Origin: a virus
Length of the DNA stretch: 5,983 bases
IMG/VR virus record: IMGVR_UViG_3300030387_000005
Span: 1 to 5,983 of that record
Strand: one strand, 5' to 3'
Positions 4,697 to 5,983 of this stretch are shown piece by piece. The position numbers and the translations under genes were made by a program. Below the pieces are notes generated by a model. It saw only the letters and a program-made list of their open reading frames with translations. It was not told where the DNA came from and ran no database searches. Every line of letters starts with the position of its first letter. Position 1 is the first letter of the stretch.

Positions 4697-5089
4697 TTAC
4701 ACCCCCTTTCTGTATTTTTTTCCGTCTCGCACATCAAAGTGTACCCAACTGTTGTATACGATAATGCCGCATCCATTCGGGACGATTTCATCCAGTTTTT
4801 TGGCAAGCTCTTTTGTTTTCATTCCGTTTACCTTTATGTCCGCTGCCATGCCGCGCATGTGGTAGCTGTATTTTGCTCCACTGCATTTTGTGTTCCACCA
4901 TGGCGTTCTGTATCCGCTGGTGATAATGATTGGTTTTCCTAGCTTGTTTCGTAAGATATCCAGAATGGTGCACAGGTAGTCGTCTATGAATACTACCTGG
5001 CTGCCGTCTTGACAAGCAAATTCTTTTACTTTGAAGTACTGTCCTACTTTTTCGTTTGAGCTCGTGTCCATGATATAGCTTTTAATCAT
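4697..5089 (-). CDS. Zinc peptidase of family M15, of the M15A / Peptidase_M15_3 type, a putative peptidoglycan hydrolase (130 aa from the ATG).
   Basis: The product carries SGYRTPWWN ... YHMRGMAADIKV ... WVHFDVRD, which matches the spacing of the H-x-D ... H zinc-ligand pattern and the SxHxxGxAxD motif of LAS-type M15 peptidases. GGAGG lies 9 nt upstream of the ATG at 5089..5087, which overlaps the upstream stop through ATGATTAA. The ORF-track start at 5119 is a TTG extension. Confidence 0.75.
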   Translation of the reverse strand: MIKSYIMDTSSNEKVGQYFKVKEFACQDGSQVVFIDDYLCTILDILRNKLGKPIIITSGYRTPWWNTKCSGAKYSYHMRGMAADIKVNGMKTKELAKKLDEIVPNGCGIIVYNSWVHFDVRDGKKYRKGV

Positions 5090-5273
5090 TTCCGTCAACC
5101 TCCGTGAAGTATACTTCAACCGTTTCGACTCTTTTTAGTGAATACAATCCCGGGTTTTCTTCTGCGTATGCTTTTGCACGTTTTTTCGCGTCCCTTGGCT
5201 CTTCTGTCATTCTGAGCACGATTGTTGTGGTTGCATCGCTGTTTAATGCTCTGAGTTCGTAGTTGTGTTTCAT
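5082..5273 (-). CDS. Hypothetical protein (63 aa). It is the first gene of the operon.
   Basis: The ATG at 5273..5271 is preceded by AAGGGGG with an 8-nt spacer and lies about 22 nt downstream of the predicted transcription start. The ORF-track extension to 5330 would begin inside the promoter -35 box, so that start is rejected. The product is MKHNYELRALNSDATTTIVLRMTEEPRDAKKRAKAYAEENPGLYSLKRVETVEVYFTEVDGND. Confidence 0.55.
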   Translation of the reverse strand: MKHNYELRALNSDATTTIVLRMTEEPRDAKKRAKAYAEENPGLYSLKRVETVEVYFTEVDGND

Positions 5274-5301: not shown

Positions 5302-5330
5302 ATTATATCATATGTCAATAGGGATTTCAA
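5302..5330 (-). promoter_or_regulatory. Sigma70-type promoter that drives the minus-strand operon covering the whole genome.
   Basis: On the minus strand the sequence reads TTGAAA, a 17-nt spacer, then TGaTATAAT. That places the -35 box at 5330..5325 and the extended -10 box at 5310..5302. The predicted transcription start is near 5295, followed by a 5' UTR carrying AAGGGGG upstream of the first ATG. Confidence 0.6.
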
Positions 5331-5415
5331 TGATTTTGCTGTTTTGTAATATATTTGTAACTTTCTCTTGTAACCTGGTTTTGCCCCTTTGGTTTGAAAG
5401 CGCTTTAGCGCTCTG

Positions 5416-5442
5416 CCGTGCGGAGCGTATGCGGAGCTCGGC
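5416..5442. repeat. Tandem direct repeat of TGCGGAGC, flanked by the inverted pair GCCG and CGGC.
   Basis: TGCGGAGC occurs at 5420-5427 and again at 5430-5437, 10 bp apart. The adjacent sequence AGCGCTTTAGCGCT (5398-5411) is two copies of the palindrome AGCGCT. Confidence 0.4.
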
Positions 5443-5470
5443 TAATTCTTTCATTGTTAGCGCTGTGCGC

Positions 5471-5646
5471 GTTTTCAACACTTTCAACACTTTCAACAGG
5501 TTTTCCACAAAATGTTGCACAATGATTTTCGTTATTTTGACGAACTTTCAACATTTCAACAAGTTTTCAACAAAACTTTCAACATTGTTTTTCGCTTTTT
5601 ATTTACGCTTTAGCGTTAAATTTTAGTACTTTTCAACTTTTCCACT
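5471..5646. repeat. Iteron array of the heptamer TTTCAAC on the plus strand, which is GTTGAAA on the coding strand.
   Basis: Three tandem 9-mers, CTTTCAACA, lie at 5473-5497. Four more copies lie at 5546-5552, 5554-5560, 5565-5571 and 5577-5583, and another at 5631-5637. Variants TTTCCAC lie at 5502-5508 and 5640-5646. An inverted copy lies at 5394-5400, and the promoter -35 box at 5325-5330 is a further copy. Confidence 0.7.
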
Positions 5647-5720
5647 GCCTCTACTACTACTCCTACAACAAGTTATATATTATACGGCGCTTGTGAGCTT
5701 GCGAACAATAGCGCCGAAAA

Positions 5721-5768
5721 GGCCGCGCGTGCGCGCGTGCGCGCTTCGCGCGCGTGCGCACGCGCGAT
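5721..5768. repeat. GC-rich palindrome made of alternating purines and pyrimidines. It has hairpin and Z-DNA potential.
   Basis: The sequence is GGCCGCGCGTGCGCGCGTGCGCGC TT CGCGCGCGTGCGCACGCGCG. Positions 5724-5743 can pair with 5766-5747 over about 20 positions, giving 18 Watson-Crick pairs and 2 G-T pairs, with a CTT loop. It is an isolated GC island in an otherwise AT/T-rich control region. Confidence 0.65.
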
Positions 5769-5820: not shown

Positions 5821-5860
5821 GACAAAAGCCCAGTACCTTACTTGATAGGTACTGGGCTAG
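5821..5860 (-). terminator. Rho-independent terminator downstream of the Rep stop. It marks the end of the operon that runs across the circular junction.
   Basis: A perfect 11-bp inverted repeat, GCCCAGTACCT (5828-5838) paired with AGGTACTGGGC (5847-5857), flanks an 8-nt loop. On the minus strand it is followed by TTTTGTCGTC. It lies 10 nt after the Rep TAA stop. Confidence 0.6.
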
Positions 5861-5869
5861 GTGACACTG

Positions 5870-5983
5870 TTAAAGTGTCCCCCTCTTCTTCATTTGCTTC
5901 TTTATCACTCTTTCTTTTGTCTTACATTGCTCTGCAAAGTCTGCATTTTCGTATTTAAGCCGGTTCTCTGCTATGGCTGCTGC
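5870..5983 (-). CDS. C-terminal end of the same VP4/Rep gene. Positions 5885-5983 duplicate 1-99, and the unique part, 5884..5870, encodes the last four residues RGTL plus a TAA stop.
   Basis: Position 5885 aligns with position 1, giving 99 nt of exact identity. Reading the minus strand from 5983 continues in frame through ...KKQMKK, then RGTL, then TAA at 5872..5870. Confidence 0.8.
   Translation of the reverse strand, partial: AAAIAENRLKYENADFAEQCKTKERVIKKQMKKRGTL
5885..5983. repeat. Terminal redundancy: an exact copy of positions 1-99. It indicates a circular genome of about 5,884 nt opened arbitrarily inside the Rep gene.
   Basis: Base-by-base identity of 5885-5983 with 1-99 was read directly from the sequence. 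Confidence 0.9.

Follow-up and report, generated by a model that had tools for sequence, protein, structure and literature searches.

The window analysed here is the whole 5,983-nt stretch of IMG/VR virus record IMGVR_UViG_3300030387_000005, the genome of a gokushovirus of the mammalian gut, and our subject is an array of GTTGAAA repeats in its non-coding region. We propose that these repeats are a variant of the binding site (box) of the bacterial initiator DnaA and that, together with the adjacent sequence, they would form an oriC-type unwinding element that depends on host DnaA and acts on the duplex replicative form. That host DnaA reads the boxes seems to us very likely; the full proposal, origin function included, we consider probable with modest confidence. 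The element has the architecture and the register of the unwinding core of bacterial origins, it is conserved among related phages, a pattern made from it is diagnostic of chromosomal origins, and its box variant also occurs at a real origin. Such unwinding systems are already known from bacteria; what is new here is a module of the chromosomal type on a single-stranded DNA phage with rolling-circle replication. Searches of the full-text literature turned up no account of microviruses with DnaA boxes, DnaA-trios, oriC-like elements or iterons, and none of phages with DnaA-trios.

The repeat array and its unit

GTTGAAA occurs eight times, always on the minus (gene) strand (5473, 5482, 5491, 5546, 5554, 5565, 5577 and 5631), and nowhere else in the genome; 1.14 copies are expected, and the maximum in 200 dinucleotide shuffles was 4. 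Two GTGGAAA variants (TTTCCAC on the plus strand, at 5502 and 5639) and one TGTGCAACA (plus strand TGTTGCACA, 5513-5521) bring the total to 11 units in a single orientation, arranged in three clusters (5472-5521, 5545-5584 and 5630-5646) with start-to-start spacings of 9, 9, 11 and 12 in the first, 8, 11 and 12 in the second and 8 in the third. Taken over 736 units from 87 genomes, the repeat proves to be a 9-mer that reads YTTTCMACA on the plus strand.

An earlier note on this DNA had described a heptamer array running from 5325 to 5646, with a promoter -35 box as one of its units and one inverted copy. The eight exact copies, the GTGGAAA variants and the spacings of 8-12 nt stand, and the extent and the two additional members do not. 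The -35 box at 5325-5330 (ATTGAAA on the minus strand) is the ordinary -35 element of a sigma-70 promoter (TTGAAA-17-TATAAT, 5330-5302, 11/12 match) that lies 140 nt outside the array; read on the plus strand as TTTCAATG, it is a poor match to the 9-mer, and a different -35 stands there in close relatives such as KX513868. The supposed inverted copy at about 5391-5399 is GTTTGAAAG, which has an extra T and is part of a different conserved block. Because both fall outside, the array spans 5472-5646.

The resemblance of TTGAAA to a -35 hexamer had also suggested a cluster of promoters, stacked sigma-factor decoys or UP elements. The array contains a single weak -10 partner (9/12), and it is inverted relative to the genes in at least eight genomes, so that its orientation to them is not fixed. 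Nor do we accept the 70-aa open reading frame (ORF) at 5308-5520 as coding: it overlaps the array, and some GenBank records annotate hypothetical proteins there, but it matches no family, it is disrupted in KX513868 by a 4-nt indel, and the module inverts. A neutral repeat is ruled out by conservation across deep divergence. We find it scarcely credible that the repeats belong to promoters or to this frame, or that they are neutral.

The unit YTTTCMACA is best read as a variant of the DnaA box (consensus TTATCCACA, relaxed form TTWTNCACA). The copy TTTTCCACA at 5501 is the sole exact TTWTNCACA in the genome, and in PV067914 the unit that follows a degenerate 'aattcaaca' box (the counterpart, matched by eye, of the one at 5564 in the window) is a perfect TTATCCACA. 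Another host factor with an overlapping motif could in principle be the reader, for example Spo0A (0A box TGTCGAA), which would tie phage development to sporulation as in phi29. Spo0A binds sites that overlap DnaA boxes in the B. subtilis oriC, 0A boxes are found in phi29, and TGTTGAA and TGTGGAA are each one position away from TGTCGAA. We nevertheless hold this to be highly improbable: TGTCGAA is absent from the whole window and TGNCGAA from the boxes, the variable position being T or G, and Spo0A would leave the other parts of the module, described below, unexplained (the trios, the spacer and the AT run).

Architecture of the core

In B. subtilis incC and in other bacteria the basal unwinding system (BUS) consists of DnaA-box#6/#7, a GC spacer, DnaA-trios and an AT-rich region (Richardson 2016; Richardson 2019, PMC6669920; Pelliciari 2021, PMC8287927). 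By the published rule, a box that deviates from the consensus at no more than 2 positions is joined by a tandem partner; a short spacer rich in GC follows, then 3 or more trios (3'-GAT-5') and finally an AT-rich region. The phage core reads, in order, TTTTCAACT TTTTCCACT, then GCCT, then CTA CTA CTA CTC CTA CAA CAA G, then TTATATATTATA, and the site at 5638 is the only match to the rule in the genome.

The agreement holds for each part. The box next to the trios (allowed distance 0-16 bp) is TTTTCCACT at 5638-5646, with 2 mismatches to TTATCCACA; the consensus among relatives at this second proximal box is TTTTCCACA, with 1. Its adjacent tandem partner, for which up to 4 mismatches are allowed, is TTTTCAACT at 5630-5638, with 3. 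The tandem of 8 bp, start to start, is common to the phage, to B. subtilis TTATCCACAAATCCACA and to all 120 bacterial loci listed as matches of the phage pattern (see below). Between box and first trio, where about 4 bp are expected, the phage has GCCT and the bacterial loci have GCCC or GGCC. The trios (at least 3 of 3'-[G/A]A[T/A]-5') lie on the correct strand at 5651-5665: three are perfect and in succession, all five triplets have a central A, and they are 94-97% conserved, with the fourth variable. The minus strand of the trios is the one that a DnaA filament would bind. The AT-rich stretch at 5673-5684 comes after them, though with CAACAAG intervening, and nine further boxes at 5472-5584 provide a distal cluster. 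What the phage does not have is a chromosomal position beside dnaA and dnaN, its genes being only VP1-VP5-like, a peptidase and small ORFs; the module appears oriC-like in its working without being a chromosomal oriC.

The B. subtilis scaffold used for DnaA-dependent strand separation is ACTTATCCACAAATCCACAGGCCC+TACTATTACTTCTACTA, i.e., TTATCCACA AATCCACAG GCC CTA CTA TTA CTT CTA CTA (supplement, PMC8287927). The phage core aligns with it ungapped, with 28/39 identities by hand count. A stricter version of the architecture, defined after the module had been seen and therefore partly post hoc, is present in the window and in 0 of 1000 shuffles.

The phage-specific part of the core is CAACAAG (CTACAACAAGTWATATA), which is nearly invariant even in phages whose Rep is 37-46% identical and is absent from the bacterial BUS loci examined (120 origin modules). 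It is a candidate nick or recognition site for Rep. One could then keep the same boxes and trios and suppose that melting by DnaA exposes a nick site for the HUH endonuclease VP4 in or beside CAACAAG/TTATATA (the CAACAAGTTATATA region), so that rolling-circle replication is gated by DnaA. HUH enzymes need a single-stranded substrate, the motif sits exactly between trios and AT run, and it always inverts along with the boxes. The phiX174 nick region is CAACTTG^ATATTAATAAC, and the resemblance of the phage sequence to it is loose (11/18 by eye) and weak evidence in an AT-rich context. A better core of the phiX/pC194 type, ACTTGATA, is found in a separate conserved hairpin loop (5827-5858) that does not invert, and a nick site inside the module would cause genomes with an inverted module to package the opposite strand. 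We therefore consider nicking at CAACAAG unlikely.

Table 1. Parts of the repeat module in the window, with functional names as proposed here
Feature	Position	Strand	Remarks
Whole module, exchangeable cassette	5470..5685		Inverts as one block between ...GCGCTGTGCGCGT and GC-rich flank
Distal DnaA-box cluster, 5 same-orientation 9-mers	5472..5521	+	TTTTCAACA 5472, CTTTCAACA 5481, CTTTCAACA 5490, TTTTCCACA 5501, TGTTGCACA 5513
Middle DnaA-box cluster, 4 9-mers	5545..5584	+	CTTTCAACA 5545, ATTTCAACA 5553, TTTTCAACA 5564, CTTTCAACA 5576
Proximal tandem boxes	5630..5646	+	TTTTCAACT 5630-5638, TTTTCCACT 5638-5646, 8 bp start to start; counterpart of B. subtilis DnaA-box#6/#7
Spacer GCCT, 4 nt	5647..5650	+	Sequence variable, length constant in 120 distinct phage modules
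DnaA-trios	5651..5665	-	Plus strand CTA CTA CTA CTC CTA = 3'-GAT GAT GAT GAG GAT-5' on minus strand
CAACAAG motif (CTACAACAAGTWATATA), phage-specific	5666..5672	+	Between trios and AT run
Putative AT-rich unwinding element TTATATATTATA	5673..5684		Longest pure A/T run; in the genome's least stable 16-bp window

Bacterial origins retrieved with the phage pattern

With a degenerate pattern derived from the phage core, TTWTCMACNTWTCMACNNNNNCTACTAC, we scanned bacterial genomes, one for each species. Frequencies from this collection scan are lower bounds, and the loci examined do not form an unbiased sample. The pattern retrieved at least 120 bacterial loci, and in each of them the tandem boxes are followed, after a spacer of 4 nt, by trios and an AT-rich stretch. 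Among the 120 matches listed, clustering of the flanking ORFs places a DnaA-like ORF just upstream in 78 and a DnaN-like one just downstream in 78, with either or both in 91; RecF, GyrB and RnpA are also found near matched loci. Since most of the listed matches adjoin dnaA and/or dnaN, the phage sequence is diagnostic of real chromosomal origins.

At one of these loci (L292, a metagenome-assembled genome of Oscillospiraceae, JAJQDP010000025) DnaA and DnaN were confirmed by Pfam, and the dnaA-dnaN spacer holds eight TTTCAAC words and one TTTCCAC, with the core TTTTCAACATTTCAACAGCCCCTACTACTAA; nearly all boxes of this origin are thus of the TTTCAAC kind. Boxes with A at position 6 are present in real Clostridia origins, which removes the main objection to GTTGAAA as a DnaA box. 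The CAAC variant in the L292 origin is also a weak hint at the host. The box-contact motif of the L292 DnaA is RNHSTM, compared with RDHTTV in most others, and this change may reflect an altered box specificity. As a general cause of CAAC boxes we reject altered specificity: other CAAC-rich origins have the canonical RDHTTV, and with only L292 standing out no general rule follows.

Conservation, inversion and exchange among phages

The earlier note had proposed to look for the repeat in related microviruses, and the outcome is strongly positive. The module is kept in more than 200 genomes of mammal-gut gokushoviruses, and the array has kept its place in every relative examined, with 5-12 exact copies of the heptamer each. 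A BLAST search with the module gave 43 GenBank records, all of them gut gokushoviruses (human, pig, monkey, mink, raccoon) and none annotating the element; a search against plasmids gave no match, nor did Rfam for the intergenic sequence. Across 120 distinct phage modules, conservation of the boxes and trios is 0.9-0.97, and in the AT run of relatives the composition of A and T only is kept while the sequence is not. This pattern, together with the constant spacer length, matches function. Variability is far higher in the immediate flanks (5350-5390 and 5686-5722) than in the module.

The same boxes and core recur in phages at Rep identities of 37-48% and VP1 identities of 41-46%, and the triple tandem and the fourth box of the distal cluster are kept even where Rep is 37-46% identical; in one phage (L178) the module lies in a different gene context. 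Constancy of the boxes at this Rep divergence argues for a host reader and not for the phage Rep. Direct repeats beside a Rep gene and hairpins do superficially resemble the iterons of iteron plasmids or of circular Rep-encoding single-stranded (CRESS) DNA viruses, which here would be read by a phage protein (Rep/VP4 or a small accessory one), and Rep recognition had indeed been suggested for them. Iterons normally co-vary with their initiator, whereas here the 9-bp units are identical at 37-48% Rep identity, and the same TTTC[A/C]AC units accompany Reps that are 37-100% identical. The small neighbouring genes differ from carrier to carrier, the small ORFs beside the region gave no hit to a DNA-binding family, and the motif is the box used at a bacterial oriC. 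Iterons read by a phage protein are thus very improbable.

DnaA might also be bound without any firing of an origin. The 11-box array could be a sink that titrates DnaA and shuts off or retimes host initiation, or DnaA could regulate the early promoter. Dense same-orientation clusters of boxes are typical of titration loci of the datA type, and the promoter at 5330-5302 is 140 nt away from the array. Yet neither a sink nor a switch needs in-register trios, a spacer of fixed length or an AT element, and these are the best-conserved parts. Inversion, moreover, alters the distance and orientation of every box to the promoter and the module is still kept, and the L178 module stands in its different gene context. 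We regard this alternative as quite unlikely.

Seven close relatives, and MG945388 as well, carry the stretch that begins with the first box and ends with the AT run in inverted orientation; the genomes in which the box/trio/AT-run block is inverted relative to the genes carry our labels L003, L007, L023, L044, L053, L055, L068 and L088. The inverted modules are each other's nearest relatives and form one sequence lineage, while their Rep genes are nearest to those of normal-orientation genomes (several at 93-97% identity). An inverted lineage on differing backbones identifies the module as an exchangeable cassette and implies recombination; it favours one old inversion that was spread by recombination, plus MG945388 in a further clade. 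A site-specific inversion switch was considered and rejected, as a look for inverted repeats at the module borders showed, by eye, only short GC-rich similarity.

From these genomes the module would seem functional in either orientation. As a single strand it folds with -15.2 kcal/mol, which is not significant (z = -0.27), and the whole intergenic region has z = -5.3; the single-strand structure of the region resides in the flanking GC-rich blocks and not in the module. An origin or primosome signal on single-stranded DNA would have a strong, orientation-dependent structure, and the module has none, which speaks against the primosome elements that had been suggested. Either orientation together with an unstructured single strand favours action on the duplex replicative form. 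Among the interpretations offered in the earlier note, binding by a host regulator and a role in an origin survive, now in the form of putative DnaA-box variants in an oriC-type unwinding module; the remaining ones fall away.

The contigs L059 (10,711 nt) and L021/L356 (10,917 nt) are about twice the genome length, and L059, with 8 boxes per orientation, suggests a head-to-head dimer or an assembly artefact. Cores of the BUS type are found on larger, non-microvirus viral contigs (12-110 kb): L335, L342, L351, L354 and L381, for which the flanks were examined and upstream DnaA-box clusters were present too, and also L317, L320, L330, L332, L349 and L361. L332 and L381 use the same box variant, TTTTCAAC. 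In the fetched stretches of these larger contigs no dnaA or dnaN was detected. The capture of origin modules by phages may be broader than the gokushovirus clade.

Genome context and neighbouring elements

The window carries an exact terminal repeat of 99 nt from assembly (1-99 / 5885-5983), and is therefore a complete circular genome of 5884 nt. All genes are on the minus strand (Rep/VP4, the DNA pilot protein VP2, the major capsid protein VP1, VP3, a VP5-like protein, an M15 peptidase and small ORFs), and several are preceded by Shine-Dalgarno sequences. The Rep/VP4 gene starts near 1005, crosses the circular junction and stops at 5873; its product is an HUH Rep homologous to the phiX174 type (phrog_942). 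The array lies in the non-coding region of about 600 nt between this stop and the next gene start, at 5273. The closest GenBank relative in the mammal-gut gokushovirus clade is KX513868, with 83% identity over 91% of the genome. The small genes at 5082-5273, which separate the M15 peptidase from the non-coding region, differ among close relatives and so make up a variable accessory slot, for whose ORFs no family match was found.

Directly after the Rep stop there is a perfect 12-bp hairpin at 5827-5858 with the loop TACTTGAT. In the loop, at 5841-5847 on the plus strand and so antisense to the genes, stands the sole CTTGATA of the genome, the nick core of the phiX174/pC194 type. About 66 relatives retain the loop, with covariation in the stems (L164 has the stem GGGCCTAATCCT and the loop CTTCTTGAT), and the hairpin stays in place when the module inverts. 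It is also the only terminator-like site by score. The loop is a candidate for the rolling-circle nick; were it used, the antisense strand would be packaged.

At a distance of 40 nt from the AT-rich element, a conserved GC-rich palindrome of 43 nt (5724-5766) with alternating pyrimidines and purines, (CGCGCGTG)n, marks the right border of the invertible module; it folds as a strong hairpin or cruciform and is likely prone to form Z-DNA. At 5390-5470 there is a conserved GC-rich block with a GCGCTTTAGCGC hairpin and two copies of TGCGGAGC, which folds as a long imperfect hairpin. It is non-coding, given the 4-nt indel in KX513868. Other clades have different GC-rich structured blocks at this position and KX513877 lacks the block; it might be a single-strand origin.

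Within the module, between the middle and proximal boxes (5596-5626), there is by eye an apparent small palindrome, CGCTTTAGCG, with AT-rich arms. At the same position MG945334 and MG945233 (L005 and L006) have, also by eye, a palindrome of about 14 bp and variable sequence, GTACTTTTTCTT...AAGAAAAAGTAC. A dif/XerCD-like site at 5660-5690 was considered and rejected, as by eye its arms match E. coli dif poorly.

Discussion

With the repeats read as DnaA boxes, we propose the following series of steps. On the double-stranded replicative form, host DnaA-ATP would fill the boxes and oligomerise from the proximal tandem onto the minus strand of the trios, and the resulting filament would melt the AT-rich element. 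The opening would most likely load the host replicative helicase and so give DnaA-dependent replication of the replicative form by the theta mode. Such a route would permit amplification, or plasmid-like carriage, independent of the rolling-circle Rep.

Several points weigh against this proposal. Both the binding of DnaA and the unwinding are inferred from sequence. At position 6, where the canonical box has C, nine of the 11 boxes have A, which amounts to 2-3 mismatches to TTATCCACA, so that a canonical DnaA would bind most of them with low affinity. The loose published rule, taken alone, is satisfied by 86 of 1000 shuffles. The conserved CAACAAG does not belong to the bacterial BUS, and the DnaA model does not account for it. 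Microviruses are the textbook case of a phage HUH nickase with rolling-circle replication, and we know of no microvirus that needs DnaA; the conserved rolling-circle Rep is retained here, so that a second initiation route would have no evident purpose. The module is absent from Chp2, phiMH2K and SpV4, so it does not answer a general requirement of microviruses. Finally, a search for Rep in 185,579 species genomes found no relatives, and neither a prophage nor an episome.

We also put forward, more tentatively, a picture of the biology: a widespread clade of mammal-gut gokushoviruses with a portable origin-opening module, whose replicative form would be replicated or licensed by host DnaA, either as a minichromosome-like episome with a plasmid-type carrier state or with Rep nicking gated by DnaA melting. 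If true, either mode would be a manner of replication, and a lifestyle, undescribed for Microviridae, and the CAAC box variant would point to uncultured Clostridia, similar to Oscillospiraceae, as hosts. More generally, the conserved module would imply a second, host-initiator-dependent route, a DnaA-gated initiation or a plasmid-like persistence. The module touches on two questions, how abundant gut gokushoviruses can persist with no integrase and which hosts they have; for the second, a DnaA-box variant may serve as a sequence-based clue. The module, of about 215 bp, would also offer origin biochemistry a natural minimal BUS. With BUS-like modules on larger viral contigs as well, capture of origin modules by phages is perhaps commoner than recognised.

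Comparison with known systems

The closest likeness is to the BUS of B. subtilis, with which the phage module shares the orientation of the boxes, the 8-bp tandem, the 4-nt spacer, the sequence and frame of the trios, the downstream AT-rich element and the extra upstream box clusters; the C. difficile trios, CACCTACTACTATTACTACTATGA, are also closely similar to those of the phage. The module differs from its bacterial counterparts in residing on a 5.9-kb single-stranded DNA genome without dnaA or dnaN, in having 11 same-facing boxes, mostly with A at position 6, and an extra CAACAAG after the trios, and in occurring in either orientation between GC-rich, hairpin-forming blocks.

The origins of pSC101, F, R6K and P1 (oriR) are examples of mobile replicons that recruit host DnaA through boxes beside an AT-rich region. 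The phage resembles them in this arrangement and in having an initiator of its own as well. In these plasmid and phage origins, however, the few boxes assist a plasmid Rep that is bound to iterons of 17-22 bp, whereas the phage shows no evident initiator iterons and its initiator is an HUH nickase. To our knowledge none of these origins has been described as carrying an unwinding core of tandem boxes, spacer and trios.

Rolling-circle origins of the phiX174 type have a 30-nt ori with CAACTTG^ATA, and nick sites of the pC194 family are related examples. Here the phage has a homologous HUH Rep and the ACTTGATA core in its hairpin loop at 5827-5858. The array differs in lying outside such an origin, in being unstructured and independent of Rep divergence, and in inverting apart from the hairpin; it contains no nick core of the CTTG^ATA type, and the CAACAAG beside the trios is a weak resemblance. 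In the ABC primosome, associated with Masai and Arai, a DnaA box in a hairpin stem on single-stranded DNA reportedly acts as a priming signal. That system likewise has DnaA used by a single-stranded replicon, but it needs its box in the duplex stem of a hairpin, whereas the phage boxes are direct repeats without a significant fold.

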